The notes beneath the pieces were generated by a model. That model worked only from the letters and a program-made list of their open reading frames with translations. It was not told the DNA's origin and made no database searches. A DNA stretch of 64,000 nt from Nannocystis bainbridge (GTDB lineage Bacteria > Myxococcota_A > Polyangia > Nannocystales > Nannocystaceae), in NCBI RefSeq assembly GCF_028368995.1, contig NZ_JAQNDL010000002.1, positions 992,001 to 1,056,000 of the forward strand, given 5' to 3'. The translations under genes and the position numbers were made by a program. The number at the start of each line of letters is the position of its first letter. Positions within the stretch are counted from its first letter, which is position 1. Of this stretch, positions 3,877-48,208 are shown one piece after another.

Positions 3877-4595
3877 ACCTGATCCTGCTGCGCGCCGAGG
3901 AGCTCGCGCCGACGGGCGCGGGCTCGCAGCGGGCTGTCCTTCGGGACAGGCGGCTGCAGCACCTGCGCGAGGTCCTGCGCGCGCGCGTCGGCGACGAGGT
4001 CGGGGTCGGCGTGGAGGGCGGCGCGATCGGCAAGGCGACGATCATCAACCTCGACGCGCAAGCAGCCGAGCTCGAGCTGCGCCTCGACGAACCACCGCCG
4101 CCGCCGCTCGACGTGACGCTGGCGCTGGCGCTGCCGCGACCGCCGACGCTGCGCAAGGTGCTGCAACAGGCGACGGCGCTCGGGGTCAAGCGGTTCGCGC
4201 TGTTCCGGGCCGAGCGGGTCGAACGCAGCTACTTCTCGAGCCACGGCCTGCACGCGAGCGCGCTCGCGGAGGACCTCCAGCTCGGGCTCGAGCAAGCGCG
4301 CGACACGATCGTGCCGACGGTCGAGGTCCACCCGGAGCACTTCGGCCGATTCGTCCGCGAACGCCTGCCTGAACTCTGCGAGGGCCGCGCGCCGCTGGTG
4401 GCCCACCCGGGGGCGGCCACGCCGTGCCCGCGGGCGCCGATCGGTCCGGCGACGCTGATCGTGGGCCCGGAAGGCGGGTTCATCCCGGCCGAGGTGGCGC
4501 TGCTGAAGTCGCTGGCGCAGGCGATCGATCTCGGGCCGCGGATCTTGCGGGTCGAGACGGCCGTGGTGGCGCTGCTGGCTCGCCTGTCGCCGTGA
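3873..4595 (+). CDS. rsmE: 16S rRNA m3U1498 methyltransferase
   Basis: HLREVLR, LQQATALGV, EQARDT, LIVGPEGGF and LGPRILRVETA are SPOUT/RsmE motifs; GTG start overlaps the upstream stop. Confidence 0.93.
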   Translation: MNLILLRAEELAPTGAGSQRAVLRDRRLQHLREVLRARVGDEVGVGVEGGAIGKATIINLDAQAAELELRLDEPPPPPLDVTLALALPRPPTLRKVLQQATALGVKRFALFRAERVERSYFSSHGLHASALAEDLQLGLEQARDTIVPTVEVHPEHFGRFVRERLPELCEGRAPLVAHPGAATPCPRAPIGPATLIVGPEGGFIPAEVALLKSLAQAIDLGPRILRVETAVVALLARLSP

Positions 4596-4682
4596 GGCGC
4601 GCTGCTTCGGATGACGGGGCCGGTCGTCCGTGATCGGCGTGACCTCGACAGGCACGCGCGGCCGGTCTAGCGTGCGGGGCGG

Positions 4683-6152: not shown

Positions 6153-6297
6153 GGACCTGACGGTGTGGCCACATCGTCCGCGATCTGGGTCCGCTTCGAA
6201 GTCTCGATCGCCGCGCGATCTTGCTTGACGCTCCTGGCGCGGTTTGGGATTGCTGGTGTGGCGGGCGACAGGCGTCGTGCGCGGAGGAACGACGGCG

Positions 6298-7068
6298 ATG
6301 CTCATCTATCGTGGTTTGCGAGTGGTGCTGTTCGGCGGGCTTGTCATGGCGACGGGCTGCGGCGACGACGACAATCAGACCGGCGGCTTCACCAGCTTTT
6401 CGACCCTCCAGCCGACCGGGGCGACCAACCCGAACACCACGCCCGGGACCACGCCGGGCACCACCCCGGGGACCAGCGAGACGACGAACGACAGCTCCGG
6501 GGACTCGGAGTCGAGCACGATGCCGGTCGACCCGAGCACCGAGCCCGACCCGACCTCGACGACGAACCCGCCGACCTCGACCACCGAGCCGCCGACGGCG
6601 ACGACGGATCCGGCGACCACCGACGAGTCGACGTCGAGCTCGTCGAGCTCGTCGAGCTCGAGCTCGAGCACCTCGAGCTCGACGACCGACGACACGAGCT
6701 CGAGCTCGAGCTCGAGCACGACGATGATGATGACGACCGACCCGCCGCCGGCCAAGGATCCGCAGCCGGCGCAGGGCCTCTACTCCAACTGCTTCCCGAG
6801 CGACATGTGCGTCGGCCTCAACGGCGGCGGCTGCCTCAGCCTGCAGGACGCCGACATGGTCGCGTTCGACGGCTTCTGCACCGTGCTGTGCCAAACCGAG
6901 GCCCAGTGCACGCCGAAGCCCAACAGCCCGGCGATCACCCGCTGCCTCGCCATCGACGCCATGCAGAAGGCGTGCTTCCTCGAGTGCGTGACCGACGCTG
7001 ACTGCCCGACCGGGATGGCGTGCGAGCTGGTCGGCCTGCCCAACGGCGACGGCAGCTACTGCTGGTGA
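6298..7068 (+). CDS. Lipoprotein with a Thr/Ser-rich stalk and Cys-rich C-terminal domain
   Basis: GGAGGA RBS; signal peptide ending MATGC; T/S/P/D low-complexity linker; 10 Cys in the last ~90 aa, ending YCW. Confidence 0.85.
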   Translation: MLIYRGLRVVLFGGLVMATGCGDDDNQTGGFTSFSTLQPTGATNPNTTPGTTPGTTPGTSETTNDSSGDSESSTMPVDPSTEPDPTSTTNPPTSTTEPPTATTDPATTDESTSSSSSSSSSSSSTSSSTTDDTSSSSSSSTTMMMTTDPPPAKDPQPAQGLYSNCFPSDMCVGLNGGGCLSLQDADMVAFDGFCTVLCQTEAQCTPKPNSPAITRCLAIDAMQKACFLECVTDADCPTGMACELVGLPNGDGSYCW

Positions 7069-9851: not shown

Positions 9852-11489
<1,638 letters not shown>

Positions 11490-11525
11490 GCGCCGCGTCG
11501 GCGCGGTCGCCGAGCGCCGCGTCGG

Positions 11526-11732: not shown

Positions 11733-14700
11733 ATGCCGATGCGTGCCTTTCACCGACCTCGCGGTGCCGTGCTGGCCACGGCGGTGTTCGTCGGCGCGCC
11801 CGTGCTCGCGGCCCTCGTGCCGCAGACGGCGCGGGCGCTCGAGAGCGCGGGGCTCAGCGGCGCGATCAAGGACCGCCAGACGGGTGAGCCGGTGGCGGGG
11901 GTCGTCGTGCTCGCGCAGTGCAACTGCTTGCAGGGCCCGCGCGACACCCGGACCAACGCCGAGGGCGTGTACGTCTTCCGCGACCTGCCGCCCGGCGTCT
12001 ACACGGTGCAGGCGCTGTACCGCGAGAACGACCTCAGCAAGATCGTCGAGCTGGGGCCGGCGGCGAAGGTGCGGGTCGACTTTCAGCTCGCGCCGGACGA
12101 GCGGTGGGTGCAGACGATCGTGGTCGAGTCGGCGCCGATCCGGACCGACGGCGCCAGCGTGCAGAAGGTCGACGTCGAGCGCATGCGCAAGATCCCGCTC
12201 GGCGGGACCAGCCGCGACTACACCGCGGTCGTCGACATCTCGCCGACCGCGGGCCGCGACGCCGGCGGGATCCGTCTCGGCAGCGGCACCAGTGCCGAGA
12301 GCAAGTACGTCGTCGACAGCCAGAACTCGACCAGCCCGGCGTTCGGGACCGTCGGCGCCAGCATCGTCCAGGAGTTCGTCGACGAGGTCGAGGTCGTCGA
12401 GGGGGTGTTCGACGCCGAGAACGGCGGGGCCAGCGGCGGCCTGGTGCGGGCGCGCCGGATCGGCGGCAGCAACAAGTGGCGCGGGCAGGTGCTGTTCCGC
12501 TTCACGCCGCGCATCGCCTCGCCGCGCTTCATCGACGCCACCGACGAGTCGCTGCGCGTGGCCGAGATCTACAACTACGAGATGCAGGGCGTGGTCACCC
12601 TGTCGGGCCCGATCGTGCGCGACAAGCTGTTCTTCGCCATCGGCCTCGCCCCGGGCGGCAGCAACAACTCGCTGGTGCAGTCGTTCTTCCGCCGGCGCGA
12701 CAAGGACCTCTCGGGCGGCTACGAGGGTTGCCCGTACGCCAACGGCGTCAACGACTGCGCCGCCAACGGCAACTACATCGACACCGTCAAGTTCGCCGAG
12801 CAGAAGTTTCGCACCGGCCGCTTCGACCTCGGCTGGACCGCGAGCCTCGACTGGCAGATAAGCCCCCGCCACCGCCTGCGGCTGTCGGGCGGCGGCGGCC
12901 CGAACTTTCGCCGCCGCAGCTTCCGTCAGCCGACGGGGTCCGAGCCCAACGCGTTCGGCACCAACCCCAACGCGACGATCGGCGGCGCCTCGCGCGTGGC
13001 CTCGGGCGTGGTCAACGACAGCTTCGGCGTCGATTACGGCAACAGCACCGGCGTCGGCCTCGAGTACGAGGGGCGGGCGCTCAACGACAAGCTCGAGCTC
13101 GACGGCTACGTCTACTACACGCGCCTGCGCGGGCAGCAGGCGTGGAAGCTCGACCACGAAGAGAAGCGCCGGATCCCGCTGACGCAGGAGCGCGACACCC
13201 AGGGCCGCAACCTCTACGACCTGCTCGACCGCGACGACGCCGTGCGCCTGGTCCAGGGCGCCAGCGACGCCTGCAACGACTCGAACCTGCCCGGGCTGAC
13301 GTGCCCGACGCGGGTGTGGCTGTCGGGCGGCATCGGCTCGTACTCGAGCACGCAGCAGGACCGGATCGGCGGCGGCTTCGCGCTGACGCATTTCCTCTCG
13401 GCGCGGCGCGGCGGCGCTCACCAGCTCAAGTACGGGTTCGAGATCGACGGCTCGCAGATCCGCCAGCGCTCGGCCTACTCGGGCGGCAACGACCCCGACT
13501 TCTACGCCAACTGTCCTCAGGGACAGGTCGGCGGCGGCGAGTACTGCTTCGATCGGGACAGCGGCGAGTACACCCTCAACACCGCCAACCGGGTCAACAA
13601 CAACCGCGTCGTCATCGTCCAGTCGGACAACCCCGACCAGCGGCAGACGCTCGGGTTCGGCCGCGTGCGCTACGAGCAGGACGACCTGCGGGCCATCGCC
13701 ACCCCGCTCGGCGCCGGCGTGCGCGTGCCGGCCTACGCGTCGTCGCTGTCGAGCCAGAACTACGCATTCTTCGCCCAGGACAAGTGGTCGATCCTCTCCA
13801 ACCTCTACGTCTCGGCCGGCGTGCGCTGGGAGATCCAGGAGCTGCGCGACGTGTTCGGCCGGCGCGGCCTGCTGATCGCCGACAACGTGGCCCCGCGCGC
13901 GAGCCTGGTCTACGACTGGACCGACGAGGGCAAGAGCCGGCTGTACGTCAGCTACGGGTGGTTCTACGCCCAGATCCCCGCGATCCTCGGCAACCGGATC
14001 TTCGGCGGGCTCGTCAACGTCAACCGCACCTACCGCAACTCCGACTGCCAGACCCCGGTGACGATCGGCGGCGTGGCGCACGACCGGCTCGAGAGCGGCG
14101 CGCCGACCGAGTGGTGCGCCGACGGCAACCAGAGCACCAGCGGCCTGACCTTCGGCGCGGTCGCGCCTGACCTGAAGGGCATGTACGTGCAGCGCTTCAA
14201 CGCCGGCTACGAGCACGAGGTGGTCGAGGACCTGCTGATCGGGGTGCGCTGGCAGCACGACGGGCTCGGGCGGGCGATCGAGGACGTGTCGACCAACGGC
14301 GGCCTCAACTTCCTGCTGGCCAACCCCGGCGAGTCGGTATCGCGGGCCGACATCGCCCGCCAGGAGGAGCGCTGCGAGCAGCTGCAGGCCCAGGCCGACG
14401 CCACCGACGCCGACGACCCGCAGCGCCAGACCGCGGTCCGCGAGCTGAACCGCTGCGACTTCCTGGCCTCGTCGTTCCGCCAGCTCGGCGGCATGTTCTC
14501 GCGCCCGGTCCGCAACTACGACGCGTGGATCTTGCAGGTGACCAAGCGGTTCGCCAAGAACTGGGTGTTCCAGGGCAGCTACATCTACAGCCGGCTGATC
14601 GGCAACTACGACGGCTTCGTCGACCGCAACACCGGCGCGATCAACATCGGCGCCAGCACCACGTACGACATCCCCGAGCTGGTGCGCAACAGCTACGGGC

Positions 14701-15218: not shown

Positions 15219-15223
15219 AGGTA

Positions 15224-15297
15224 CATGTCCGTTCGGGAATGTCCGAACGGACATGTCCCGCGCGCTAGGTCGCTTCGGACATGCCCCGGAGGACAGC
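15224..15297. repeat. Phased 14-bp palindrome array between convergent genes
   Basis: Cores at 15224, 15238, 15252, 15266, 15280 and 15294; perfect unit TGTCCGAACGGACA at 15240-15253. Confidence 0.85.
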
Positions 15298-18264: not shown

Positions 18265-20115
18265 TTGAAAGTCCACCTCATCGGCATCGGCGGCACCGGT
18301 ATGGGCGCGTTCGCAGGGCTTTTGCAGGAGGCCGGTCACGACGTCCGCGGCTCGGATACGCAGCTGTTTCCGCCGATGTCGACCCAGCTCGAGGCGGCCA
18401 AGATCCCCGTGTTCGAGGGCTTCCGGCCGGAGAACCTCGACTGGGGCCCCGACTTCGTGGTCGTCGGCAACGTCTGCAGCCGCGAGCACGTCGAGGTGGT
18501 CGGCGCCCAGGCCCGCGGGCTCGCGCTCGAGAGCTTCCCGTCGCTGCTCGAGAAGGTCGTGCTGCCCGAGCGGCGCGCGCTGGTGGTCGCCGGCACGCAC
18601 GGCAAGACGACCACGTCGTCGCTGCTGACGTGGATGCTGCAGGTCGCGGGCCTGCAGCCGAGCGCGCTGGTCGGCGGCGTGCCGATCAACCTCGGCCGCG
18701 GCTACCTGTTCGGCCGCGGGCCGTCGATCGTGCTCGAGGGCGACGAGTACGACACCGCGTTCTTCGACAAGGGCTCGAAGTTCTTCCACTACCGCCCGTT
18801 CCGCGCGATCGTCACGAGCGTCGAGTTCGACCACGCCGACATCTTCGCCGACCTCGACGCGGTCAAGGCGGCGTTCGTCCGCTTCGTCGAGCTCATCCCG
18901 CCGGAGGGCGACCTGGTGGTCTGCGCCGACGATGCCGGGGCGATGGAAGTGGCCCGCGCGGCCCGCTGCAAGCTCACCACCTACCGCGTGCTCGCCGACG
19001 GCGACGACCCGGGCTCGGCCGACTACACCTGCCGCGTCGAGGCCAAGCGCGGCCGCGGCCTGATGGTGTTCGAGGTGTTCGAGCGCGGCGTCAGCCTCGG
19101 CGAATTCCAGACCACGCTGGTCGGCACCTACAACCTCGGCAACGTGCTCGCGGCGCTGGCCGTGGCCCGGCAAGAGGGCGCGTCGGTCGAGGCGCTGTTC
19201 GACGCGGTGCGCCGGTTCCTCGGCGTCAAGCGGCGCCAGGAGCTGCTCGGCATCGCCAGCGGGATCCGCGTCGTCACCGACTTCGCCCACCACCCGACGG
19301 CGGTGCGCCTCACCACCACGGCGATCCGCCGCCGCTTCCCCAACGGTCGCCTGTTCGTGTGCTTCGAGCCGCGCTCGGCGTCGTCGCGGCGGTCGGTGTT
19401 CTCCGACGGCTACGCCGAGAGCTTCGCGGCCGCCTCGCGCGTCGACGTGGGCCCGCTGTTCCGCCCGGAGAAGATCCCGCTGGACCAGCGCCTCGATCCG
19501 CCGGCGCTGGCGCGGGCCATCGCCGCCAACGGCATCGAGGCGCTGGCCCACGCCGACGTCGACGAGCTGGCGCAGGCGGTGCTCGCCGAGGCCGCCCCCG
19601 GCGACACGATCCTGCTGCTCACCTCGGGCTCGTTCGGCGGGCTCGGCGACAAGATCCTCAAGGCGCTCGGCGACGCGGTCATGTTCGCCACCCCGGAGGA
19701 CCTGCCGGCCGTGCACGCGCTGTGCTCGTCGTACGGGCTGGCGCCGACGATCCCCGGCGACACCACCGAGACGCTCATCATCCGCGAGCCCGAGGGCGCG
19801 GTGGTCGGCTGCGTGTCGCTGCGCATGGTCGGCGCGCAGGCGCTGCTGTTCAACCTGGCGATCGATCGCGAGCGCCGCGGCGAGGGCCTCGGCTGGATGC
19901 TGGCCGACGGCATCCTCCGGCGCGCGCGCATGCTCGGGGTCCAGCAGGTCTACCTCGTCACCACCGACGCGACCGATTTCTTCGCCGGCAAGCTCGGCGC
20001 GACGCCGGCGTCGGTCGAGGAGATCGATCCGCAGATCCGCCGCGACCCTAACTTCGTGCTCGGCGAGCGGGCCGTGTGCATGAAGATCGATCCCAGCTAC
20101 AAGCGGGGCTCGTGA
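18265..20115 (+). CDS. mpl: UDP-MurNAc:tripeptide ligase (murein peptide ligase) fused to a C-terminal GNAT domain
   Basis: HLIGIGGTGM, PPMSTQL, AGTHGKTTTSS, EGDEYDTAFFDK, EFDHADIF, GVKRRQE, DFAHHPTA, FEPRS; the C-terminus has GNAT motif A (LAIDRERRGEGLG). Confidence 0.9.
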   Translation: MKVHLIGIGGTGMGAFAGLLQEAGHDVRGSDTQLFPPMSTQLEAAKIPVFEGFRPENLDWGPDFVVVGNVCSREHVEVVGAQARGLALESFPSLLEKVVLPERRALVVAGTHGKTTTSSLLTWMLQVAGLQPSALVGGVPINLGRGYLFGRGPSIVLEGDEYDTAFFDKGSKFFHYRPFRAIVTSVEFDHADIFADLDAVKAAFVRFVELIPPEGDLVVCADDAGAMEVARAARCKLTTYRVLADGDDPGSADYTCRVEAKRGRGLMVFEVFERGVSLGEFQTTLVGTYNLGNVLAALAVARQEGASVEALFDAVRRFLGVKRRQELLGIASGIRVVTDFAHHPTAVRLTTTAIRRRFPNGRLFVCFEPRSASSRRSVFSDGYAESFAAASRVDVGPLFRPEKIPLDQRLDPPALARAIAANGIEALAHADVDELAQAVLAEAAPGDTILLLTSGSFGGLGDKILKALGDAVMFATPEDLPAVHALCSSYGLAPTIPGDTTETLIIREPEGAVVGCVSLRMVGAQALLFNLAIDRERRGEGLGWMLADGILRRARMLGVQQVYLVTTDATDFFAGKLGATPASVEEIDPQIRRDPNFVLGERAVCMKIDPSYKRGS

Positions 20116-20603
20116 CCGTCGCCGTGTTCGTGGCGCTCGCCGCGGTCGCGCTGGCGGCCGGCGTCGCCGCGGTGTGGCGCGCGCCGGCGTGGGCGCTGCC
20201 GGTGCTGGCGTGCGCGCTCGCGGGCGTGATGCTGCTGTACCAGGCGACGGGGCTGGCGCTCGTCACGATCGCGGCGATCGTCGGGGCGGCGCTGGTGATG
20301 GCGGTGGCGCGCGGACCGGCGCGCGTGGGCGCTCCTGCCGACGTTGCGGCGCCCTCGGGGCGGCTCGGGGCGGGGCGGCTCGCGGCGGTGACGGTCGCGG
20401 TCGCGGGCCTGCTGTTCGTGCTGGTCGGCACGTGGGCGCGCCAGTTCCTGTGGACGGGCCGCGAGCTGCCGCCGGGTTCGAGCTGGGGCGAGCTGCCCGG
20501 GCTGGGGGTCGCGCTGGGCGGCGCGCCGGGGCTGCTCGGCGTCGGGTTCGTGATCGTTGTGGCGGCAGCCGCGTGCGCCGGGCCGCCGCGGCATCGGATA
20601 TAA
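20112..20603 (+). CDS. Small hydrophobic membrane protein, NuoJ-like by position and size
   Basis: GTG start overlaps the mpl stop; about 5 TM segments; lies directly upstream of NuoK/L/M/N-like genes. Confidence 0.6.
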   Translation: MTVAVFVALAAVALAAGVAAVWRAPAWALPVLACALAGVMLLYQATGLALVTIAAIVGAALVMAVARGPARVGAPADVAAPSGRLGAGRLAAVTVAVAGLLFVLVGTWARQFLWTGRELPPGSSWGELPGLGVALGGAPGLLGVGFVIVVAAAACAGPPRHRI

Positions 20604-20611
20604 GACCGCGC

Positions 20612-20875
20612 GTGCCCATCACCCACGTCTACTACCTGGCCAGCGGCTTGTGGCTGCTCGGGCTCGCGGGCGTGCTGCTGCGCCGCGAGGGCTGGGGACG
20701 GACGCTGGCGCTGGTGGTGATGCTGGTCGGCGCGGCGACGGTGCTGGTCGGGGCCGCGCGCGCGTGGGCGCTGGCCGACATCCACGGCCTGGCGGCGCTG
20801 ATGTTCGCGCTCGCCGGGGCTTACGCGGTGGTGCTGGCGACGCTGCAGCCCGAGCCGGACCGGGAAGGTCCGTGA
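20612..20875 (+). CDS. Divergent NuoK/ND4L-like subunit
   Basis: VPITHVYYLASGLWLLGLAGVLLRR resembles the NuoK N-terminus (LGLTGLVIRR); 3 TM segments; 87 aa. Confidence 0.75.
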   Translation: MPITHVYYLASGLWLLGLAGVLLRREGWGRTLALVVMLVGAATVLVGAARAWALADIHGLAALMFALAGAYAVVLATLQPEPDREGP

Positions 20876-23292
20876 TGGGCGCGCTGGCGGCGACGCTGCT
20901 CCCGGCGGCGGTCGGGCTCGCGCTCGTCGGCCTGGTCGGGCCGCTGGAGCGCCGCTGGGGCGCCGCGGCCGCCAGCGCGACGGCGGCCCGCGCGGCCCTG
21001 GTGGCGGCGGTGCTGGCCTGCCTGGTGCTGTGGCAGGCGATCCAGCGCGACCAGCTCGAGCACCGCCTGGCGTGGATCCGCGTCGGCCGCACGACCACGA
21101 TCGACTGGATCGTCCAGCTCGACGGGCTCGGGCTGGCGCTGGCGCTCGTGAGCCTGGCGGCGCTGGGGCTCGGGGTGGTGGCGATCCTGGCCTTCGGGAC
21201 AGCCGGCGGCGGACGCCCTGGCGCCCGCGTGGTCGTGGCCGCCGGCGGGGCCCTGGTGCTGGCGAGCGGCGGGACGCTGGTCCAGCTGGGGCTCGGGGTC
21301 GGGCTGTGCGTGCTGGCTCTTCGAGCATGGCCGATGGACCATGTCTCTTCAGACATGACTGTACGAGCATGGCCTGTGGACCATGTCTCCACGGACATGA
21401 CCGAGAGGGCATGGCCGTTGGGTCTGGTGGGCGCGGGCCTGTCGCTGGCGATCCTGGCCTGGCTGGCGGCCGCGGGCGACTTCGACCTGATGCGGCTCGA
21501 GCGGTCGACGCTGGCGCAAGACGGGTCGCAGCTGGTGCGCGGCGAGATCGGCGGGCCGCTGTTCGGCTGGCCGCCGGGCGTGGTAGCGACCGTCAGCGTC
21601 GGCGCGGCGGCGCTGGCGTGGATCGGGGCGTGGCCGCGGCTGGTGGCGCGAGCCTGGGCCGAGGGGCCCGGGCCGGCGCTGGTGGCCACGTGCGCGGCCG
21701 GGCCGGCGCTGACCGTGGTGCTGCTGCGCACGCAGGTGGCGCTGGCGATGGCCCCGACCGCGCTGGCGCTGGTCACGGTGGCGGCGGCGGGCACGGCGGC
21801 GTGGGCGGGGCTGCAGGCGGCCCGGGCCGGCACGAGCGCGCGGGCGGTGGCGAGCGGGACGGCGGCGACGCTGGCGATCGCGACGGCGACCATCGCCATC
21901 GGCGAGCCGATCGCGGCGACCCAGCTGCTGCTGGCGGGCAGCCTGGCGTGGGCGGCGATGATCGCGGGGCTGCAGGCGCCGCGGCGGCTGCGGGCCGGCG
22001 TCGCCGGGCTGGCGGGGCTGGGCCTGATCGCGGGGCTGGGACCGGCCGTGGCGGGGCTGTGGAACGACCTCAGCGCGTGGTCGAGCGGGATCAACGTCGT
22101 CGCGCCGGCGCTGGCGCTGGTCACGGTGACGGCGACGGCCTGCGCGATCGGACATGTCCTCACGGACAGGACCGATGCGCCAGGTTGGCGGCAGCCCGAG
22201 GCGCCGCCGCTGCTGTCCGGGGTAGCCATGCTCCTGGCGCTGGGCGCGGTGGCGGCGGGGCTGTGGCCGCTGGCGCCGCGGATCTGGCAGCAGTTCGTGG
22301 CCGGCCGCATGTTCGAGGGGGCCTACGCCCTGGGGCCGCGACCGGACGCGTGGTTCGTCGGGCCGTGGCTGGGGATGGGGCTGGTGGCGGTCGCGGTGGC
22401 GATCGGGCTGGGGCTGGCGCCGCGGATCCGCCCGGCCCCGGCGCGCACGCGCAGGCGATCCGCGGGCGCCGCGGGTCCGACGATCCCGCGGCTGCTGCGG
22501 CTCGGCGAGCGGCTGGTGGCGCGCCTGACCTTGTGGCCAGGTGACGAGCGGGTGACGGTCGCGCCCGGCCGCTTCGATGTGCGCGGGCCGCTGCTGCTGA
22601 CGAGCGCCGGGGTGCTGGCGATCCTCGGCTCGGTGTTCTGCAACCCGGACGTGGTGGTGCTGGGCCCGACGCGTGTGCACCCGGTCGACCTGGGGGGCCT
22701 CGACGCGGCGATGGCGGGGGCCCGCCGCGGGACCGGGGCGGCGACGCCGAGCCCCGCCGGGCCGGCCGGGGCGCCAGCAGGACAGGGCGAGGACATCGGC
22801 CCGGCGCCGCTCGGCGGCGTCGATCGGGCTGGCGGCGCGGACATGCTCGAAGGGGTAGGCGCTGCGCAGCGAGGCGAGACGGCTGGTGGATCGAACATGC
22901 CCGAAGGGGCAGGTTCGCAGGCGTCGTCGGGCGCGCACGGAGCTGGTGGATCGGACATGTTCGAAGGAGCAGGTTCACCGGCGCCGACAGGTGCGCGTGG
23001 AGCTGGTGGATCGGACATGCTCGAAGGGGCAGGTTCACCGACGCCGACGGGTGCGCGCGGAGCTGACGGACCGGTCATGCTCGAAGGGGCAGGCGCTCGG
23101 ACGCCGACGAGCGCGCCTGGAGCCGCCGGCGCGGGCGCGCCCGACGGGCCCGGCTCGCAGGCGCGTGGAGCTGGTGGATCGGACATGCCCGAAGGGGCAG
23201 GTTCGATGCGACATGGCGCGATGGACATGTCCGAAGGGTCAGCGAGCCCGCGCCCCGGGGATACCGGCGCGGCGGCGGGAGGGCGCCCATGA
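20875..23292 (+). CDS. Divergent NuoL/ND5-like antiporter-fold subunit with repeat-derived insertion and tail
   Basis: WIRVG...IVQLDGL, GVGLC, AWAEGPGP and LLRT resemble NuoL landmarks; coupled to both neighbours; Gly/Ala/Pro repeat tail. Confidence 0.75.
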   Translation: MGALAATLLPAAVGLALVGLVGPLERRWGAAAASATAARAALVAAVLACLVLWQAIQRDQLEHRLAWIRVGRTTTIDWIVQLDGLGLALALVSLAALGLGVVAILAFGTAGGGRPGARVVVAAGGALVLASGGTLVQLGLGVGLCVLALRAWPMDHVSSDMTVRAWPVDHVSTDMTERAWPLGLVGAGLSLAILAWLAAAGDFDLMRLERSTLAQDGSQLVRGEIGGPLFGWPPGVVATVSVGAAALAWIGAWPRLVARAWAEGPGPALVATCAAGPALTVVLLRTQVALAMAPTALALVTVAAAGTAAWAGLQAARAGTSARAVASGTAATLAIATATIAIGEPIAATQLLLAGSLAWAAMIAGLQAPRRLRAGVAGLAGLGLIAGLGPAVAGLWNDLSAWSSGINVVAPALALVTVTATACAIGHVLTDRTDAPGWRQPEAPPLLSGVAMLLALGAVAAGLWPLAPRIWQQFVAGRMFEGAYALGPRPDAWFVGPWLGMGLVAVAVAIGLGLAPRIRPAPARTRRRSAGAAGPTIPRLLRLGERLVARLTLWPGDERVTVAPGRFDVRGPLLLTSAGVLAILGSVFCNPDVVVLGPTRVHPVDLGGLDAAMAGARRGTGAATPSPAGPAGAPAGQGEDIGPAPLGGVDRAGGADMLEGVGAAQRGETAGGSNMPEGAGSQASSGAHGAGGSDMFEGAGSPAPTGARGAGGSDMLEGAGSPTPTGARGADGPVMLEGAGARTPTSAPGAAGAGAPDGPGSQARGAGGSDMPEGAGSMRHGAMDMSEGSASPRPGDTGAAAGGRP
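21326..21413. repeat. Phased 14-bp array inserted in frame in the NuoL-like gene
   Basis: CATG at 21326, 21340, 21354, 21368, 21382, 21396 and 21410; gives the 14-aa repeat RAWPMDHVSSDMTV/RAWPVDHVSTDMTE. Confidence 0.9.
22827..23240. repeat. ~60-bp tandem repeat (6-7 copies), most copies carrying one 14-bp palindrome-like unit
   Basis: GGAGCTGGTGGATCGGACATGYYCGAAGGRGCAGGTTC... is repeated; encodes (GAGGSDMLEGAGSPTPTGAR)n. Confidence 0.85.
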
Positions 23293-24830
23293 GCGTGCTG
23301 GCCGACCTGCGGCTCCTGGCGGCGCTGCCGTGGCTGGCGGCCCTGGCGGTGCTGCTGCTGCCGCGGCGGGCGGCGCGGGCCTGCGCGCTGACGGCGACGG
23401 GGCTCGGGGTGCTCGCGGCGCTGGCCTGCTCGGCGGGCGCGCCGGCGATCGAGGTGGAGTGGCTCGGCCGCGGGGTCGCGCTGCGGCTGACGTCGGGCCC
23501 GCTGGCGGCGTTCGGGCTGGTGGCGACGGCGGTCGCGGGGCTGCTGGCGGTGCTGGAAGAGGAGACGCGCGGCCGCGGTCGACTGGCCGGGCTGCTGGCG
23601 CTGCTCGGGACGGTGCTGGTCGGGCTCCTGGCCGGTGACGTGCTGGTGCTGGCGGCCGCGTGGGCGCTGGCGCCGGCGCTGGTGCTGGGGCTGCTGGCCG
23701 CGCGCGCGAGCGAGGCGGAGGGCCGGATCGCCGGGCGAGCGCTGGCGCTGCTGCTGTCCCTCGGGGCAGGTGCGGTGCTGCTGGTCGGGGCCGGGCTGGC
23801 GGTGGCGCACCGCGGGGCCAGCAGCGGCACATGGAGCGCGGCGCTGACCGGGCTGGCGAGCGTGCGCGTGCCCGAGGCGGCGGCGACGGGGCTGGCGGGG
23901 GCGCTGGCGCTGGCGTGCGCGCTGGCGATCGGGCTGTGGCCGCTGCACGCGGGGCTGGTCGAAGGGACAGCCGTGGGCTCGCGCGGGACGACCCGGCTGC
24001 TGGCCGGGCCGGTGCGCTGGCTCGGGCTCGACGCGCTGATCCGGCTGTGGGCGCCGCTGGTGCCGCTGGGCGCGGCCGCGACGGCGCCGTGGCTGGCCGG
24101 GCTGGCCACGCTGGGGGCGATCTACGCCGGACTTTCGGCGCGCGTCGAGCTCGACCCGGAGCGGCGCGCGGCCCGGATCGCGCTGGTCGGCTGGAGCGTG
24201 GCGACCGTCGGGGTGGCCACGCTGACGCACGAAGGGCTGAGCGGGGCGCTGCTGCTCGCGGTCGTGGCCGGGCTCGGGCAGCCGGGGCTGGCGCGGGCCG
24301 AACCGATCGCGCGGGTGGTGCTCGGCCTCGCCGGCGGGCTGGCGGGCGGGCTGGTGATCGTCGCGGCGCTGCGCCCGGCCGCGCTGACGCTCGGGGCGCT
24401 CGGGCCGTGGTGCGCCTGCGGGGCCGCGCTGGCGCTGGGGCTGGCGGGTTCGGCGATGGCCCGCGGGACAGGTATCAAGGGGCATGTCGCCAGGGACATG
24501 GTGAAAGCGACAGGTCCTTCAGGGCATGTCGCGCAGGACATGGCGGATACGACAGGTCGCGCGGGACATGTCCCCGGGCGCTGGTCGACGGCGGCGCTGG
24601 TGACGGTGGTGGCGGTGGCGATCGCCCGACCGAGCCTGGTGCTCGGGCGCCTCGACGAGGCCGGCGAGGCGTGGGTCCGCGCGAGCGCGCTGCAGCGCTG
24701 CCTGGCGCTGGTCGACCCACGCATCGTGGCGGTGCTGCTGCCGCCGGTGGCGCCGACCCGCTGCGAGTCGCCGCTCGCAGGGCTGCGCGCGGGCAAGGCG
24801 ATCGCGGCGGAGGCGGAGGGCCAGCGATGA
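23289..24830 (+). CDS. Divergent NuoM/ND4-like subunit
   Basis: LAIGLWPLH, LLAGP, LIRLWAPLVP, LGAIYAG and EGLSGALL align by eye with NuoM helices; ATGA coupling. Confidence 0.75.
   Translation: MSVLADLRLLAALPWLAALAVLLLPRRAARACALTATGLGVLAALACSAGAPAIEVEWLGRGVALRLTSGPLAAFGLVATAVAGLLAVLEEETRGRGRLAGLLALLGTVLVGLLAGDVLVLAAAWALAPALVLGLLAARASEAEGRIAGRALALLLSLGAGAVLLVGAGLAVAHRGASSGTWSAALTGLASVRVPEAAATGLAGALALACALAIGLWPLHAGLVEGTAVGSRGTTRLLAGPVRWLGLDALIRLWAPLVPLGAAATAPWLAGLATLGAIYAGLSARVELDPERRAARIALVGWSVATVGVATLTHEGLSGALLLAVVAGLGQPGLARAEPIARVVLGLAGGLAGGLVIVAALRPAALTLGALGPWCACGAALALGLAGSAMARGTGIKGHVARDMVKATGPSGHVAQDMADTTGRAGHVPGRWSTAALVTVVAVAIARPSLVLGRLDEAGEAWVRASALQRCLALVDPRIVAVLLPPVAPTRCESPLAGLRAGKAIAAEAEGQR
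24469..24570. repeat. Phased 14-bp array inserted in frame in the NuoM-like gene
   Basis: Cores at 24469, 24483, 24497, 24511, 24525, 24539, 24553 and 24567; encodes TGIKGHVARDMVKATGPSGHVAQDMADTTGRAGHVP. Confidence 0.9.
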
Positions 24831-25021
24831 CGGCGACTCGCTCACGGTTCGCAAGGTTGGCGAGCGCGGTGGTTTCGCTTCACGGCGAGCCGCGGCGCGC
24901 GGAGCGGACGAGTAACGGAGGGCCAGCGATGGCGGCGAGTCGCCCACGGTTCGCAGGGCTGGTGAGCGCGGTGGCTTGCATTCGCTGCGAGACGTCGCGC
25001 GTCGCGGAGGGCTGGCGATGA
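24827..25021 (+). CDS. Possible 64-aa spacer ORF produced by duplication of the RBS/start region
   Basis: ATG overlaps the NuoM-like stop and its TGA overlaps the NuoN-like ATG; made of two ~100-bp imperfect copies. Confidence 0.35.
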   Translation: MTATRSRFARLASAVVSLHGEPRRAERTSNGGPAMAASRPRFAGLVSAVACIRCETSRVAEGWR

Positions 25022-26739: not shown

Positions 26740-26821
26740 CGGCCCGAGATCCAGAGGGTCATGACCGGAGGCGGTCATGACCCTTTGAACATGTCTCGAT
26801 GAGCATGTTCAAAGGGGCATG
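26613..26821. repeat. Two phased 14-bp arrays (3' end of the NuoN-like gene and the convergent intergenic region)
   Basis: Cores at 26613, 26627, 26641, 26655, 26669; and 26776, 26790, 26804, 26818. Confidence 0.8.
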
Positions 26822-26887
26822 TCGTACGCGCGAAGAGGCCCGCGGGCGCAGGGCGCCGGCGGGCCTCTCGCGGGGCGCGGGTGAGGA

Positions 26888-27811
26888 TCAGCCGCAGACG
26901 CTGCCCATCGCGCCGCCCTGGCTGATCGAGCCGGCCATGCAGGCGCCGTTCATGCAGTCGGCGTCGGTCTTGCACTCGCCGCACACGCCGAGCTTCAAGA
27001 ATCCCATCACGTCGACCTCGCCGCACTGGCCGGAGGCGCAGGCGGCGTCGGCGTCGTCCTCGCCGAGCGGGCAGAGGGCGCCGTTCTCGACGCTGCCGGG
27101 CTCGACGCACTTCTTGGCGCCGCTGAACGCCGCGATGTCGAGCTCGGGGCTGCAGATCTTGCCCATGTCGCAGTCGGCCGATTCGCTGCACTCGCCGCAG
27201 GTGTCGGGGATGATGCCGGGGATCGGGAGGTCGACCGCGGGGCCGCAGATCAGGCCGTCCTGGCAGGCGTCCTGCGACATGCACTGGTTGCCGTAGCCGC
27301 CGGCGGCGCAGGTGGCCCCGCTGGGCCCGAGCGAGCAGGAGATGCCGGTGCCGGCGCGCAAGCAGTCGGCGTCCTCGTTGCACTCCGAGCAGATGCCGCC
27401 GTCGGGGAACAGCGGGCTCGTGTAGCAGTTCATCGACTCGCAGTCGCTGTTGCCCGCGCACATCTGCCCGTTCGGCAGCGGCCCGCTCGGGCCGGTGGTG
27501 CCCTGGGTGGCCTCGGTGGTGATGAAGCCGGCCGACATGTTGGTGGTGGTCGGCGTGTCGTCGGTGGTGGTGTCGTCGAGAGTGGTCGAGCTGCCAGTGG
27601 TGGTCGTGCTGGTGGTCGGCGTGTCGGGGCCGGTCGAGGTGCTGGCGGTGCTGTCACCGGAGGTCGTGGTTTCGGTGGCGCTCTCGCCGGCCGGATCGTC
27701 GCCGCGACAGGCGGTGAGGGCGAGGGCGGCAGCGAGGGCGAGGGCGGCAGTCTTGGCGAAGTTATGCGCGAGGGTCACGGTGAAGCTCCGGGATCGGTCC
27801 GCGCGCATCAT
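26888..27811 (-). CDS. Lipoprotein with a Thr-rich stalk and multiple Cys-rich repeats
   Basis: Lipobox LTAC; T/S/D linker; repeated C-x3/4-DC and CGEC motifs. Confidence 0.85.
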   Translation of the reverse strand: MMRADRSRSFTVTLAHNFAKTAALALAAALALTACRGDDPAGESATETTTSGDSTASTSTGPDTPTTSTTTTGSSTTLDDTTTDDTPTTTNMSAGFITTEATQGTTGPSGPLPNGQMCAGNSDCESMNCYTSPLFPDGGICSECNEDADCLRAGTGISCSLGPSGATCAAGGYGNQCMSQDACQDGLICGPAVDLPIPGIIPDTCGECSESADCDMGKICSPELDIAAFSGAKKCVEPGSVENGALCPLGEDDADAACASGQCGEVDVMGFLKLGVCGECKTDADCMNGACMAGSISQGGAMGSVCG

Positions 27812-28719
27812 CCATCGCCGCGTCGCGGATTGTCCAGACGCCGGCGCAGTGCGAGATCCATGGCTGCGAACCGCTGCGCGACGCGAAACTCGCCGCGTGA
27901 GTGCGCGGGCTCCGAGACCTCGACGTCGCGCGCGGGCGGCAGCGTGGCGGTGATCGAACTCACCGGGTCGGCTCCGTACAGGAGCAGCGGCATGCCCGTG
28001 GGCGTGCACGCGAGCAGAGCCGCGACCGCAGCCGCAGGATCGACGTCACGCGCGACGAGCATGCGCTGGACCAGCAGCGCTCGTCCTTCGCGCGAGACGT
28101 GGGCCCAGGCGCCGGGCAGCGGCTCCAGCGTGGCCGCGAGCGCCGGCGGCGTGCGTGCCCACGCGCCCGCACGCCAGGCGCAGACCTCGAGTGGTTCGCT
28201 GTTCGTGGGGGCCGGGGACCACGGGAGCTTGCTGCGGTCGGCGAGCTCACGGTCCCAAAGGACATGCGAGATCGGGCATGTCCCATGGGCCAGGAGGGTG
28301 ACGCGGCGAGCGCTGACGACGAGGCCGAGGCGGGCGTAGAAGGCCTCGCTCGCGGGCTCGGCGAGCACGCGCAAGGTCGAGAAGTCGCGGGCGGCGAGGC
28401 GCGCCGCGACCTCCTCGACGAGCGCGCGACCGAGGCCGCCGCCGCGACGCGCCGCGATCACGCCGAGGCCGGCGGAGTGGGCGACCGGGTCGCCGGGCTC
28501 CTGGCCGATGAGGAAGTAACCAAGGAGCATGTCCTGAGGGACATGTCCTGAAGCACCCGCGGCGACGGCGAGCACGGAGAGCTCGGGGTCGACGGCCTCG
28601 CGCTGCAGCTTGCGCGCGAACCACCCGGGCGCCCGCTCGCCACGGCCGAAGATGTCCTCGGCGAGGCGCGTGAGCGCGTCGGTGGCGACGCCGCGCAGGC
28701 TGCGGAGCTCGAAGTCCAT
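27808..28719 (-). CDS. GNAT-family N-acetyltransferase
   Basis: LGVIAARRGGGLGRAL (motif A) and AFYARLGL (motif B); its stop overlaps the downstream start. Confidence 0.8.
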   Translation of the reverse strand: MDFELRSLRGVATDALTRLAEDIFGRGERAPGWFARKLQREAVDPELSVLAVAAGASGHVPQDMLLGYFLIGQEPGDPVAHSAGLGVIAARRGGGLGRALVEEVAARLAARDFSTLRVLAEPASEAFYARLGLVVSARRVTLLAHGTCPISHVLWDRELADRSKLPWSPAPTNSEPLEVCAWRAGAWARTPPALAATLEPLPGAWAHVSREGRALLVQRMLVARDVDPAAAVAALLACTPTGMPLLLYGADPVSSITATLPPARDVEVSEPAHSRGEFRVAQRFAAMDLALRRRLDNPRRGDG

Positions 28720-31992: not shown

Positions 31993-32113
31993 CCTGTCCC
32001 GAAAGACAGGCCGCGCTCCCTGAGCAGAAGAGAGGCGTTCGTCGGGCGATCTGGCCCGAAGGACAGCCTCTTTTCGTATGCGGCGAGGGTGATGAGCTGT
32101 CCCGAAGGACAGC
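31993..32113. repeat. Three separated 14-bp palindrome units downstream of the small basic protein
   Basis: TGTCCCGAAAGACA (31995), TGGCCCGAAGGACA (32052) and perfect TGTCCCGAAGGACA (32098-32111). Confidence 0.75.
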
Positions 32114-33901: not shown

Positions 33902-34085
33902 GCGGTCTGAAAGGACATGTTCCGAAGGACCTGGTGCATGAGACAGGTCTGAAGAGGCATGTCCTCGAGGACAGTTGGCGTGCCCGCGGGAGACCGCGGA
34001 CAGACACGGTAGCGACAGGTGCGAAGGGCCTGTTCTCTCCCTGGTGCAGAGAGCAGGTCTGAAAGAGCAGGTCCCGAGGGTCAGG
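33902..34085. repeat. Phased 14-bp arrays between dacB and ddl
   Basis: Cores at 33916, 33930, 33944, 33958, 33972; and 34040, 34054, 34068, 34082. Confidence 0.85.
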
Positions 34086-38171: not shown

Positions 38172-38340
38172 GTTTTTCCACTACCACCGATCCCGGGGAC
38201 CGGCAACCGCGGGCCCGGACGTGCATGTCGCGAGCGTAACGAAAGCGCGGAGCGCTGACGTGCCCGCGCGGATCTCGATCTACTTTCTATCAACCACTCG
38301 CGCCGGCGCGCGCATGAACTGTCCCAAAGGACAGGTCACT

Positions 38341-39623: not shown

Positions 39624-44022
<4,399 letters not shown>

Positions 44023-44050
44023 GCGGGGCAGGGCGCGCCCGGAATGGCGG

Positions 44051-44227: not shown

Positions 44228-44253
44228 GCTCTTCGCTCACGCGGGGCCGCGGC

Positions 44254-44823: not shown

Positions 44824-45076
44824 ACCAGGTTCCGCGTGAGTGACTCGAAGGTGAAAGACTTCGGGGCCCGCTGCCCCGTCGTTCGGCCGAGGTAGTGCAC
44901 GCGGCGATCCAGTCGATCCCACTTTCTTTTGAAAACGCCTCAGGACGCAGAACTGGCCGAAATACCTGGTGGGCACGCGTGGACCGGGTCGTTCCGGGTC
45001 GAGAACGCGGTGAACCTGCCACCTCCAACATGCCTCGTGAATCCGCCTCCGGCCGCGCCCGGAGACAGGCTCACGG

Positions 45077-45691: not shown

Positions 45692-45754
45692 GTGGCCTAC
45701 GTGATCACTTCTATCACCGCCACCGCCGGAGTTGAAGCCATGGTAAGGTGAACC

Positions 45755-48208
45755 GTGCAGCGGGGTGGGTCGGGCGCAGACACGCTGGACGAGCAGATCC
45801 AAGCCGCTCGCGTGTTCGCGCCCGGGCTGGAGATCCAGCAGATCAAGTCGTCGGTGCGCGCGCGCCTGTTCGGGACCTTCGACGGCGCGCCGACCCTGGG
45901 CGGCTACACGCTGCGGCGAATGATCGGCCGCGGCGGCACGGGAGCGGTGTTCGAGGCCGTCGGACGCGACGGCGAGACGGTCGCGCTCAAGGTCCTCCGC
46001 GGCTTCGAGCCGGCCGCCCTCTACCGCTTCAAGCTCGAATTCCGGGCGCTGGCCGACATTTCGCACCCGAACCTGTCGCTGCTCCACCACCTCGTGGTCC
46101 GCGGCGATCAGGCATTCTTGACGATGGAGCTGGTCGACGGGGTCGATTTCCTGTCGTACGTGCGCCAGCACCCCGTGCGCCTGCGAGCGTGCCTCGCGCA
46201 ACTGACCGCGGGCCTCGATGCCCTGCACGCGGCCGGCAAGCTCCACCGTGACATCAAGCCGTCGAACGTGCTGGTGACGCGCGAAGGCCGGGTGGTGATC
46301 CTCGACTTCGGGCTGGTCCACGAGCTGACCGCAGGTCGCGGGCTCGAGGTGGTCGGGACGCCCGCCTACATGGCGCCCGAGCACGTGCGCGCCGCGACGC
46401 CGACGCCGGCGTGCGACTGGTACTCGGTCGGGGTGATGCTGTTCGAGGCGATGACAGGCGAGCTGCCGTTCGCGGGTCCGATGGACGAGGTCCTGCGCGA
46501 CAAGTGCGAGCGCGTGGCGCCCCCGGCGCTCGGAGCCGCGGCAGAACCGCCGCTTGCGGCGCTGTGCGCGGCGCTCCTGGAGCGTGAGCCGTTGCGTCGC
46601 GCGGGTGGGGCGGAGATCGCTGCGGTGCTCCGCGAGCCGGAAAATCCGCGGCCGTGGCGAGCGCACGCCCCGCCGCAACAGCGCGGTCCGGCGTCGATCA
46701 GCCCCGGCGGTCTGATCGGTCGCGACGTGCCGTACGCGGCCATCACCGCGGCGTTGATGGAGAGCCGCAAGCGCTCGGTGGTGACGCTGCTGCGCGGGCG
46801 ATCGGGGCTCGGCAAGTCGGCGCTGCTGCGCTCGTTCGCCGAGGCAGCGCAGGCGGGCCTGGCCGGCATCGACGCGCCGGCGATGGTGCTCGCGGGCCGC
46901 TGTTACGAGCGCGAGCAGGTGCCGTTCAACGCGTTCGACAGCGTGATCGATGCGCTCACCGGGCTGCTGCTCGGCGTGGGGTCGGCGGAGCTGGCGACGC
47001 TGGTGCCGCCCGACATCGCCGCGGTGGCCCGGCTGTTCCCGGTGCTGCGCCGCGTGACGACGATCGCCGAGGCGTGCCCGCCGGGGCCGGCGGGCGATGT
47101 CGACGCGGCGTCGCTGCGCCACGCATCGGCTGTCCTTCGGGACATGTTCCGAAGGATCGCCGATCGGATCCCGCTGGTGGTGATGGTCGACGACGTGCAG
47201 TGGGGCGACAGCGACAGCGCGTCGCTGCTGGTCGAGCTGCTGCGCGGCCCCGACGCGCCGCGCTGCCTGGTGGTGCTGGCGGCCAGCGAGGGCGAGGCGC
47301 TGCAGAGCGCGGACATGACGGCGCTGGTCGAGCGGCTGCGCGCGAACGGGCCGGTGCTCGAGCTGGGGCTCGAGCCGCTGCGCACGCACGAGGCGACGGC
47401 GCTGGCCGAGCTGCTGCTGCGCCGCGGTCCGGTCGAGCTCGAGGGCGAGGCGCTGCAGGCCCGCGCGGTCGCCATCGCGGGCGAGGCCGGCGGGGTGCCG
47501 CTGTTCGTCCGCGAGCTGGCGCACCATGTCCGAACGAACATGGTCGAAGGGACAGAGCTCGGCGACGTCCGGCTCGAGGCGGTGGTGGCCGAGCGCGTGG
47601 ACCGACTGCCGGCGGCGGCCCGCGAGATGCTGGCGGCTGTGATCGTGGCCGGGCGGCCGCTCGAGTTCGAGATCGCTACGGCGCTGTCCGGCGGCGGCCG
47701 GCGCGATCTGCAACTGCTGCGGGTGGCGCACCTGGTCCGCGTCAGCAAGGCGCCGCGCGGCGAACTGGTCGAGGCCTATCACGACCGCATCCGCCGGGCG
47801 GTGCTGGCCGGGGTGCGCGACGACAAGGCGCGGACGATCCACGGCCGGATCGCGGAGCAGCTGTTCGCCCGCGCCGGGGTGCCGCCGGAGCTGCTGGCCG
47901 ACCACCTGCGCGCCGCCGGCGACCGCGGGCGCGCGGCCGAGGTCACGCGCCTGGCCGCCCAGCACGCCGCCGAGGCGCTGGCGTTCCGCCGCGCGGCGGA
48001 GCTGTACCGCGACGCGGCGGCGCTGCTGCCGATCGAGGACGTCGGCGGTCGCAGTGAGGCGTTGGCGCGCGCCGGCGAAGCGCTGGCGGCCGCTGGGCGC
48101 GGTTCGGAGGCCGCCGAGTGTCTGCTCGCCGCCGCCGCGCTGGCGCCCGAGGTGGTGGCGCTGGCGCTGCGAGAGCGGGCCGAAGAGGCGCTCCGCTCGG
48201 GCGAGTGA
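45755..48208 (+). CDS. Ser/Thr protein kinase fused to a STAND-like AAA ATPase and helical repeats
   Basis: IGRGGTGAV, VALK, HRDIKPSN, DFG, GTPAYMAPE, DWYSVG; Walker A GRSGLGKS, Walker B VVMVDDVQWGD, GGVPLF. Confidence 0.92.
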   Translation: MQRGGSGADTLDEQIQAARVFAPGLEIQQIKSSVRARLFGTFDGAPTLGGYTLRRMIGRGGTGAVFEAVGRDGETVALKVLRGFEPAALYRFKLEFRALADISHPNLSLLHHLVVRGDQAFLTMELVDGVDFLSYVRQHPVRLRACLAQLTAGLDALHAAGKLHRDIKPSNVLVTREGRVVILDFGLVHELTAGRGLEVVGTPAYMAPEHVRAATPTPACDWYSVGVMLFEAMTGELPFAGPMDEVLRDKCERVAPPALGAAAEPPLAALCAALLEREPLRRAGGAEIAAVLREPENPRPWRAHAPPQQRGPASISPGGLIGRDVPYAAITAALMESRKRSVVTLLRGRSGLGKSALLRSFAEAAQAGLAGIDAPAMVLAGRCYEREQVPFNAFDSVIDALTGLLLGVGSAELATLVPPDIAAVARLFPVLRRVTTIAEACPPGPAGDVDAASLRHASAVLRDMFRRIADRIPLVVMVDDVQWGDSDSASLLVELLRGPDAPRCLVVLAASEGEALQSADMTALVERLRANGPVLELGLEPLRTHEATALAELLLRRGPVELEGEALQARAVAIAGEAGGVPLFVRELAHHVRTNMVEGTELGDVRLEAVVAERVDRLPAAAREMLAAVIVAGRPLEFEIATALSGGGRRDLQLLRVAHLVRVSKAPRGELVEAYHDRIRRAVLAGVRDDKARTIHGRIAEQLFARAGVPPELLADHLRAAGDRGRAAEVTRLAAQHAAEALAFRRAAELYRDAAALLPIEDVGGRSEALARAGEALAAAGRGSEAAECLLAAAALAPEVVALALRERAEEALRSGE

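Follow-up and report, generated by a model that had tools for sequence, protein, structure and literature searches.

A 14-bp palindromic DNA word, hyper-abundant in Nannocystis and two related genera, is written over coding sequence with rare codons

How does a single short DNA word come to be spelled out, with unusual codons, inside several genes of one G+C-rich chromosome? The question is raised by a 64,000-nucleotide stretch of the Nannocystis bainbridge genome (C3:992001-1056000 of an 11.05 Mb assembly of 5 contigs with 71-72% G+C; this whole stretch is called the window hereafter). A preliminary description had cited five 14-bp sites in this window, each inside a gene, and had inferred that synonymous positions are driven toward a shared motif. 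All five sequences were found where it had placed them, and the word to which they conform, TGTCC-N4-GGACA, is a lineage-specific, hyper-abundant DNA word that reaches high copy numbers in Nannocystis and two related genera only. Its single intragenic copies are written over pre-existing and often conserved peptides by means of rare synonymous codons, with no inserted bases.

The window contains 10 perfect copies, five genic and five intergenic, whereas 100 dinucleotide-preserving shuffles give a mean of 0.05 and a maximum of 1; an additional 36 copies carry one arm mismatch. Across the genome there are 1,987 perfect copies against 12.8 expected from arm frequencies, and reversed, permuted and N3- or N5-spacer control words occur only 3-16 times each. 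The spacer is strictly 4 nt, with at most 16 copies at any other spacing from N0 to N12, and the word stands at 156 times its expectation when compared with all 5-N4-5 palindromes, the runner-up reaching 2.8 times. One-mismatch copies number 4,258 (161-359 for the reversed, permuted and N3/N5 controls), and the motif family therefore has well over 6,000 members. Variation within the arms is strongly dependent on position, since base 2 and its partner are almost invariant genome-wide (29 and 21 variants) and base 3 and its partner are tolerant (946 and 943). The arms are flanked by a weak symmetric extension, which reads (A/G)C(A/C) on the left side and is complementary to this on the right. 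In the N4 centre a pyrimidine (Y) is preferred at the first base and a purine (R) at the last, a central RY step is symmetrically avoided (7% vs 27% background), and TTCG is among the commonest forms (105 copies). The TGTCC half-site alone is not enriched in genes (14,505 observed, shuffles giving about 14,000), and the enrichment is confined to the N4 pair. There are 956 occurrences of the decamer GGACATGTCC in the genome, usually with further, often degenerate half-sites at N4 distance, and units are thus arranged head-to-tail with a 14-bp period.

The distribution among genomes is graded. All ten Nannocystis genomes carry 114-2,090 perfect copies, the four genomes of a second genus (g2) carry 87-169, and the four of a third (g4) carry 67-295. 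Every other genome searched, with 14 other genera of the family covered besides the three motif-bearing ones, has 0-20 copies, and the reversed control gives 0-10. We found no account of TGTCC-N4-GGACA in the open-access literature on Nannocystis repeats, palindromes or intergenic DNA, or on myxobacterial TGTCC/GGACA words; in a paper on pMF1 partition such words occur only within primers and unrelated iterons.

Genome-wide genes were obtained with our own codon-statistics caller rather than from annotation (8,125 genes, 84% coding), and 802 perfect units, about 40%, lie inside them. Five shuffles of synonymous codons within genes yield 20-31 units, and codon-order shuffles yield 1-10. The excess is equally plain in the 797 genes for which a relative has a near-full-length orthologue and in which divergence is concentrated at third codon positions, as for coding sequence: these genes contain 88 units, whereas 20 synonymous shuffles average 2.2 and never exceed 4. 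The called genes have a third-position G+C fraction (GC3) of 0.941, and the suggestion in the preliminary description that rare codons might concentrate within the motif is borne out. Codons with a share below 10% among their synonyms account for 5.3% of all codons and for 23.7% of those overlapping an arm, with enrichments of 57x for ACA, 21x for CCT, 18x for AGG, 12.5x for CAT, 12x each for TGT and CTT, and 6x for GGA; 284 of the 3,730 ACA codons (about 7.6%) fall inside perfect units. The three reading frames are used unequally (458, 280 and 64 units), the preferred one being xxT GTC CNN NNG GAC Axx.

Arm bases are also kept far better between species than neighbouring synonymous sites, so a constraint acts on the DNA itself. 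Two relatives were compared over syntenic blocks holding 319 and 331 orthologue pairs at about 92% identity. Of the units in these blocks, 29 of 40 in one relative and 33 of 45 in the other retain every one of the ten arm bases, where base- and codon-position-matched rates outside motifs predict 8.2 and 9.4 and 20,000 simulations reach maxima of 20 and 23. The comparison of synonymous divergence inside and outside the motif that had been proposed earlier gives lower divergence inside: among the 797 gene pairs, third-position A/T is conserved at 89 of 95 arm positions, compared with 63 of 141 in flanks 4-30 nt away and a genome-wide fraction of 0.415, and G/C is conserved at 229 of 236 arm positions, compared with 1126 of 1322 in the flanks. 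Together with the shuffles and the codon bias, this conservation supports the claim that synonymous positions are driven toward the word. Alignable intergenic units have an identity of 0.92 in the arms, 0.78 in the flanks and 0.64 in the centre.

The centre shows a pattern of its own. It changes somewhat faster than its surroundings in genes and between them, as also seen in the units at 3935, 22155 and 38320, and this difference is statistically weak (p about 0.02); third-position G/C in the N4 of genic units is conserved at 44 of 60 sites, against the 1126 of 1322 in flanks (p 0.017). A faster-changing centre may reflect exposure of the dyad or cleavage there.

The copies and arrays of the window are as follows, with a strand given for those features that have one.

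3935-3948: perfect unit TGTCC-TTCG-GGACA, TGTCCTTCGGGACA, in rsmE, reading GC[T] GTC CTT CGG GAC A[GG].
10363-10376: one-mismatch unit TGACC-GAAA-GGACA, TGACCGAAAGGACA, in an acyl-CoA dehydrogenase gene, over the codons of its conserved peptide WMTERTGG.
13512-13525: perfect unit TGTCCTCAGGGACA, TGT CCT CAG GGA CAG, encoding the peptide C-P-Q-G-Q in a TonB-dependent receptor-like gene (PF25183, PF00593).
15240-15253: perfect unit in the intergenic space where two genes converge; its degenerate neighbours keep the 14-bp phase.
21322-21421, plus strand: in-frame 42-bp tandem repeat composed of three degenerate 14-bp units; the encoded repeats are RAWPMDHVSSDMTV-like.
22155-22168: perfect unit TGTCCTCACGGACA, CAT GTC CTC ACG GAC AGG, in the hydrophobic open reading frame (ORF) 20872-23289.
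24467-24572, plus strand: another array within an ORF, the second of its kind, in which degenerate 14-bp units recur with a 42-bp period; two relatives differ from it by a 42-bp indel.
28530-28543: perfect unit in a GNAT acetyltransferase gene (minus strand), followed by a further TGTCC half-site; perfect in three of four relatives.
32098-32111: perfect intergenic unit, preceded at distances of 46 and 103 nt by units with one mismatch; no alignable counterpart in relatives.
33960-33973: perfect intergenic unit; no alignable counterpart in relatives.
38320-38333: perfect intergenic unit just beyond the 3' end of a minus-strand gene; arms kept in four of four relatives, upstream flank unalignable.
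47131-47144: perfect unit TGTCCTTCGGGACA in the gene of a Ser/Thr kinase with an AAA_16 domain, reading GTC CTT CGG GAC ATG; a degenerate unit comes next.
49521-49534: perfect intergenic unit between convergent gene ends; perfect in one of four relatives (G001), degenerate in the other three.

The acyl-CoA dehydrogenase copy is thus a one-mismatch unit and not a perfect one. Pfam domains agree with the labels given earlier to the genes for RsmE (PF04452, E 6.7e-32), the TonB receptor, the acyl-CoA dehydrogenase and the kinase, but the label "NuoL-like" for the gene at 22155 was not confirmed. The surrounding ORF 20872-23289 (plus strand) has no Pfam hit at E<=0.01, nor have four other ORFs overlapping 20.5-24.8 kb, and a partial Proton_antipo_M match (E 3.3e-10) appears only in the next gene but one, 24976-26739. 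The translation of ORF 20872-23289 is that of a hydrophobic, membrane-like protein, and substitutions around 22155 show a 3-base period in phase with this ORF; an antisense ORF that shares its third positions could show this period too. The region 20001-28000 stands out from the rest of the window in its high G+C content (0.754-0.776) and strong GC skew (0.17), and its ORFs without a Pfam hit evolve fast, differing from relatives at about 11% of codon positions 1+2 (2-4% for the neighbouring Mur ligase gene). Elsewhere in the window, 49543-53276 and 55041-58639 are adjacent paralogous gene pairs, with secondary matches of 77-81% and 66-67% identity linking neighbouring genes in blastn comparisons with the relatives.

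Comparison of orthologues separates insertion from overprinting at the cited sites. The window is syntenic with five congeners of similar motif density (82-93% identity), and no congener has an indel at these sites, where the arms are kept while the centre varies. In rsmE the arms are kept in all five congeners around the centres TTCG, TTTC, TTGC and TCGC, a variation that changes the encoded amino acid (R/S/A), and the arms at 22155 are kept in four of four relatives, again with a variable centre. Outside the genus, the x-V/L-L-x-D-R-R segment of RsmE has no genus-specific gap in 13 orthologues from other genera (14 loci were supplied, of which L087 fell below the tblastn threshold); one outgroup, L084, has a 2-codon insertion of its own, and the outgroups use GCG/GCC and CGC/CGG where Nannocystis has GCT and AGG/AGA. 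The WMTERTGG peptide of the acyl-CoA dehydrogenase is invariant and ungapped in 11 of 11 loci, with AGG ACA in the window and eight of nine genus loci, CGG ACA in the remaining one, and CGC ACC and CGA ACA in two outgroup genera. In one relative, at locus L006 (G007:C2:3232474-3234107), the acyl-CoA dehydrogenase match is split into two overlapping pieces (residues 1-86 and 83-545), which suggests a frameshift or assembly error. Many members of the TonB-receptor family share the N-C-P/A-x-G-Q peptide, which aligns without a gap in 23 of 28 outgroup loci; the indels in the remaining five are their own. An orthologue comparison of the kind proposed in the preliminary description therefore finds no genus-specific indel at the RsmE, acyl-CoA dehydrogenase and TonB-receptor sites. 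At the kinase site, 47131, four relatives have CGC or CGA where the window has CGG, and one synonymous base difference thus completes the motif in the window. On a larger scale, only 3 of 87 intragenic units overlap an indel in 1.3 Mb of the relative G001 (about 92% identity). Among within-genome paralogues, 146 of 190 motif sites are ungapped, and the 44 that overlap a gap (23%) compare with 12.9% of control windows.

Copies that occur as several units within one gene have another origin. The distance between neighbouring units is divisible by 3 for 99 of the 116 pairs that share a gene, compared with 113 of 285 intergenic pairs, and two 42-bp (3 x 14) in-frame indels made of units separate the window from its relatives: one 42-bp copy of the repeat at 21322-21421, mapped at 21351, is missing from four of four relatives, and the second indel lies at about 24520, in the array 24467-24572. 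Multi-unit intragenic copies therefore come from in-frame repeat expansion, and the single units singled out earlier are the overprinted class. The argument made from them against all copies being mobile insertions stands for single intragenic copies, which are not insertions; it does not make overprints of all intragenic copies, some of which are repeat expansions.

Other repeats were observed alongside these arrays. At its C-terminal end the hydrophobic ORF has GGSDMLEGAGSPTPTGARGA-like repeats of 20 residues, encoded by a 60-bp tandem repeat at 22882-23123 (3.5-4 copies, each with a degenerate unit). Between two ORFs, at 24814-25009, there is a tandem repeat of 102 bp (1.9 copies, 84% matches). 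In some genome arrays the units are separated by repeated spacers of 36-60 bp. Long arrays with a perfect unit every 36 or 48 bp lie inside called genes at C2:1217430-1217848, C2:2323827-2324239 and C3:716746-717035 of genome G000, which could reflect either erroneous gene calls or repeat proteins that the unit has seeded.

The word is unevenly placed with respect to genes. Besides the 802 units inside called genes (about 0.09 per kb), 1,168 are intergenic (0.66 per kb), and intergenic density falls from 1.58 per kb between convergent genes to 0.64 between tandem and 0.21 between divergent ones. In tandem regions 447 units lie closer to the 3' end of the upstream gene and 166 closer to the start of the downstream gene. 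Intragenic density climbs with gene length, from 0.035 to 0.127 per kb. Regular spacing along the chromosome was sought and not found: copies are over-dispersed (coefficient of variation, CV, 1.2), with 2-43 copies per 100 kb.

A palindrome near gene 3' ends could be expected to act in the transcript, folding there as a terminator, a stabiliser or a translation pause. Its position would suit such a hairpin, as would the -6 to -13 kcal/mol predicted for 20-nt versions and the presence of cUUCGg-type loops among the commonest centres. However, transcription leaves no asymmetry in the units. When the 441 units that lie no more than 150 nt past a stop codon are read in the direction of transcription, TTCG (24) is balanced by its complement CGAA (23) and base composition is mirror-symmetric, and one-mismatch variants that keep a G.U pair in the sense RNA (232) barely exceed their mirror images (205). 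Covariation was sought across units and little was found, as outer flank pairs are barely complementary (1,066 Watson-Crick vs 899 expected, n=1,987) and double arm changes are mostly non-compensatory; neither compensatory change nor G.U tolerance on the transcribed strand marks these units as structured RNA. A run of at least four T within 12 nt on either strand accompanies only 76 of 1,185 intergenic units, without orientation bias, so the pattern of an intrinsic terminator, a G+C-rich hairpin with a U tract behind it and a fixed orientation to the transcript, is lacking. One arm base is invariant while another is free, and conservation is equal inside genes. The mirror symmetry, the lack of a G.U excess, the scant covariation and the position-specific tolerance indicate a duplex-DNA sequence with two-fold symmetry rather than an RNA hairpin, for which we see only a slim chance.

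Thus, TGTCC-N4-GGACA is probably a duplex-DNA site for a putative dimeric factor, held in place by selection or an equivalent drive. A homodimer would read the duplex, each subunit taking one TGTCC half-site in which the G is critical, while the N4 centre would not be read base by base beyond its preference for Y first, R last and no RY step. On an array, several dimers would sit next to one another. Copies might persist through a benefit of binding, for instance to chromosome topology or organisation at gene ends, or, alternatively, because the reader biases repair or recombination toward them. A search for genes flanked on both sides by dense units, in the manner of a REPtron, gave 27 unremarkable genes. 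It is conceivable, though very improbable in our judgement, that the palindrome is the site of a dimeric DNA enzyme acting across a 4-bp stagger, for example a type IIA topoisomerase such as gyrase. This idea draws on the two 5-bp arms that flank exactly 4 loosely read base pairs and on the avoidance of RY steps, although any dimeric binder gives the same symmetry. It also draws on the order convergent > tandem > divergent, which follows the expected positive supercoiling, on the rise of intragenic density with gene length, and on a centre that evolves faster than its flanks. Passages of PMC6379681 describe Escherichia coli gyrase as cleaving repetitive extragenic palindromic (REP) elements at gene ends, specifically those of bacterial interspersed mosaic elements (BIME-2), and as gathering downstream of transcribed units. 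If this were true, a supercoil-relief map of Nannocystis would be written into its sequence, even through codons.

Several points count against a site held for the binding of a dimeric factor. The step to a dimeric protein is drawn entirely from symmetry and position-specific tolerance, and no candidate reader was shortlisted. The two relatives used for the conservation tests share ancestry and are not independent, and the genome-wide gene calls are our own. Intergenic units turn over fast, only 16-17 of 57 being alignable to relatives, behaviour that a selfish or neutral element would explain no less well than a site the cell needs. Uneven spacing lends no support to a role requiring even coverage. 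The TonB-receptor copy is weakly held, because GGA is kept in only three of six close genomes, the window included, and the others have GGG, GGC or GGT. Finally, amino-acid identity to paralogues is lower at motif sites (0.38) than in controls (0.46); with the excess of gaps, this indicates that units settle preferentially in less constrained protein segments, and the pattern is thus partly one of tolerance and not of need.

Selection and a biased repair or uptake drive fit these data alike, as the preliminary description had also allowed. One such drive would be uptake-signal-like, a DNA-uptake or recombination machine preferring the word so that alleles carrying it spread by transformation without benefit to the cell; the same molecular-drive model has been proposed for the uptake signal sequences (USS) of Pasteurellaceae and the DNA uptake sequences (DUS) of Neisseriaceae. 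We consider it unlikely here. The uptake sequences known so far are asymmetric and consist of a single word that also stands by itself, whereas the Nannocystis word is an obligate palindrome in which the half-site is not enriched and only the rigid 5-N4-5 pair is, and head-to-tail arrays with a 14-bp period are, to our knowledge, not a feature of uptake sequences. Nevertheless, the likeness extends to thousands of copies, lineage specificity, use of the cheapest frames by genic copies, preference for less conserved protein segments and concentration at gene 3' ends, traits that passages of PMC2817400 describe for uptake sequences, together with irregular spacing and synonymous-site conservation. 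A biased mismatch correction that restores the word after mutation would mimic selection in its synonymous-site conservation, and the single synonymous difference that completes the kinase motif counts in its favour as well. Very-short-patch repair acts in this way at Dcm sites, but the Vsr endonuclease (PF03852) was not found in the window's genome or in three other genomes of the genus that were searched, it occurs in 2 of 41 family genomes, neither from a motif-bearing genus, and we know of no repair system that reads a 5-N4-5 site. We therefore give this possibility little weight, about as little as the RNA hairpin.

That the units are REP-like or other miniature mobile palindromes, copied and inserted by a transposase so that intragenic copies would be insertions, is very unlikely, though not for want of resemblance: the density gradient from convergent to divergent regions, the lean toward upstream 3' ends, the clusters and arrays, the fast intergenic turnover and the 42-bp three-unit indels in ORFs would all be expected of such elements. 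Yet a 14-bp unit cannot insert in frame, 84 of the 87 intragenic units compared with a relative are free of indels, the three deep orthologue alignments show a peptide older than the motif, and about 40% of copies are not extragenic. A search for a Y1 (RAYT/IS200) transposase (PF01797) scored in control genomes but gave nothing in this genome, at 90.5% completeness; identity with REP elements and their REP-associated tyrosine transposases (RAYT) was rejected on this ground. As for peptide-level selection or chance, by which the word would be common because certain peptides are common, the larger yield of synonymous shuffles than of codon-order shuffles indicates that amino-acid sequences contribute a few-fold. 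With proteins fixed, however, 20-31 copies fall far short of the 802 observed, and the word stands in all three frames and in intergenic DNA; as a sufficient cause it is refuted, and its probability is practically negligible.

The word can also be compared with known systems. The highly iterated palindrome HIP1 is described in passages of PMC5861425 as a short palindrome over-represented by 1-2 orders of magnitude within and between ORFs, and as conserved at orthologous positions beyond background, which argues for DNA-level constraint. The Nannocystis motif is likewise many-fold over-represented (1,987 vs 12.8), genic and intergenic, and conserved. However, HIP1 is the octamer GCGATCGC of cyanobacteria, and the Nannocystis motif is another sequence in another phylum, bipartite with a loosely read 4-bp centre, arranged in phased 14-bp arrays and biased toward gene 3' ends. 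The HIP1 paper reports periodicity, whereas Nannocystis spacing is over-dispersed by the CV of 1.2, a measure other than the HIP1 authors' own test, which was not applied. Cognate DNA methyltransferases are reported for HIP1 in passages of PMC13756078. The Nannocystis units resemble REP/BIME palindromes in their clustering at gene 3' ends, chiefly between convergent genes. REP elements are extragenic by definition and tied to RAYT transposases, and within BIMEs they alternate in orientation; of the Nannocystis copies, 802 of 1,987 are intragenic (88 of them in the 797 orthologue-verified genes), no Y1 transposase was found, and arrays run head-to-tail with a 14-bp period. The dRS3 elements of Neisseria have short conserved inverted arms and a variable centre, number in the hundreds, and flank longer repeat units in intergenic arrays, the Neisseria intergenic mosaic elements (NIME). 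The Nannocystis arrays with repeated 36-60 bp spacers resemble these elements, although the arm and centre lengths differ, and we do not know of dRS3 as an overprint on coding sequence. The analogy drawn earlier to HIP1 and to DNA-uptake sequences thus holds in that the word behaves like both, and fails in that it belongs to neither. Because it lacks a defining feature of HIP1, of uptake sequences and of REP/BIME elements, we file it under none of them.

Few DNA words of genome-wide reach are known to be under constraint within genes: HIP1, the uptake sequences, Chi and the FtsK-orienting polar sequences (KOPS). The reader and purpose of HIP1 are still debated. TGTCC-N4-GGACA is a clean new case of a constrained DNA word, sharply defined and from a different phylum, which offers both extragenic arrays and intragenic overprints for study. 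Its graded distribution, about 10-fold more abundant in Nannocystis than in the two related genera and at background elsewhere, makes the reader a suitable target for phyletic profiling. The motif also explains a measurable share of rare codons, as with ACA, which matters for annotation and codon-usage studies of these large myxobacterial genomes. In these organisms a DNA word shapes proteins, both by forcing rare codons at conserved catalytic peptides and by seeding 14-residue in-frame repeats.

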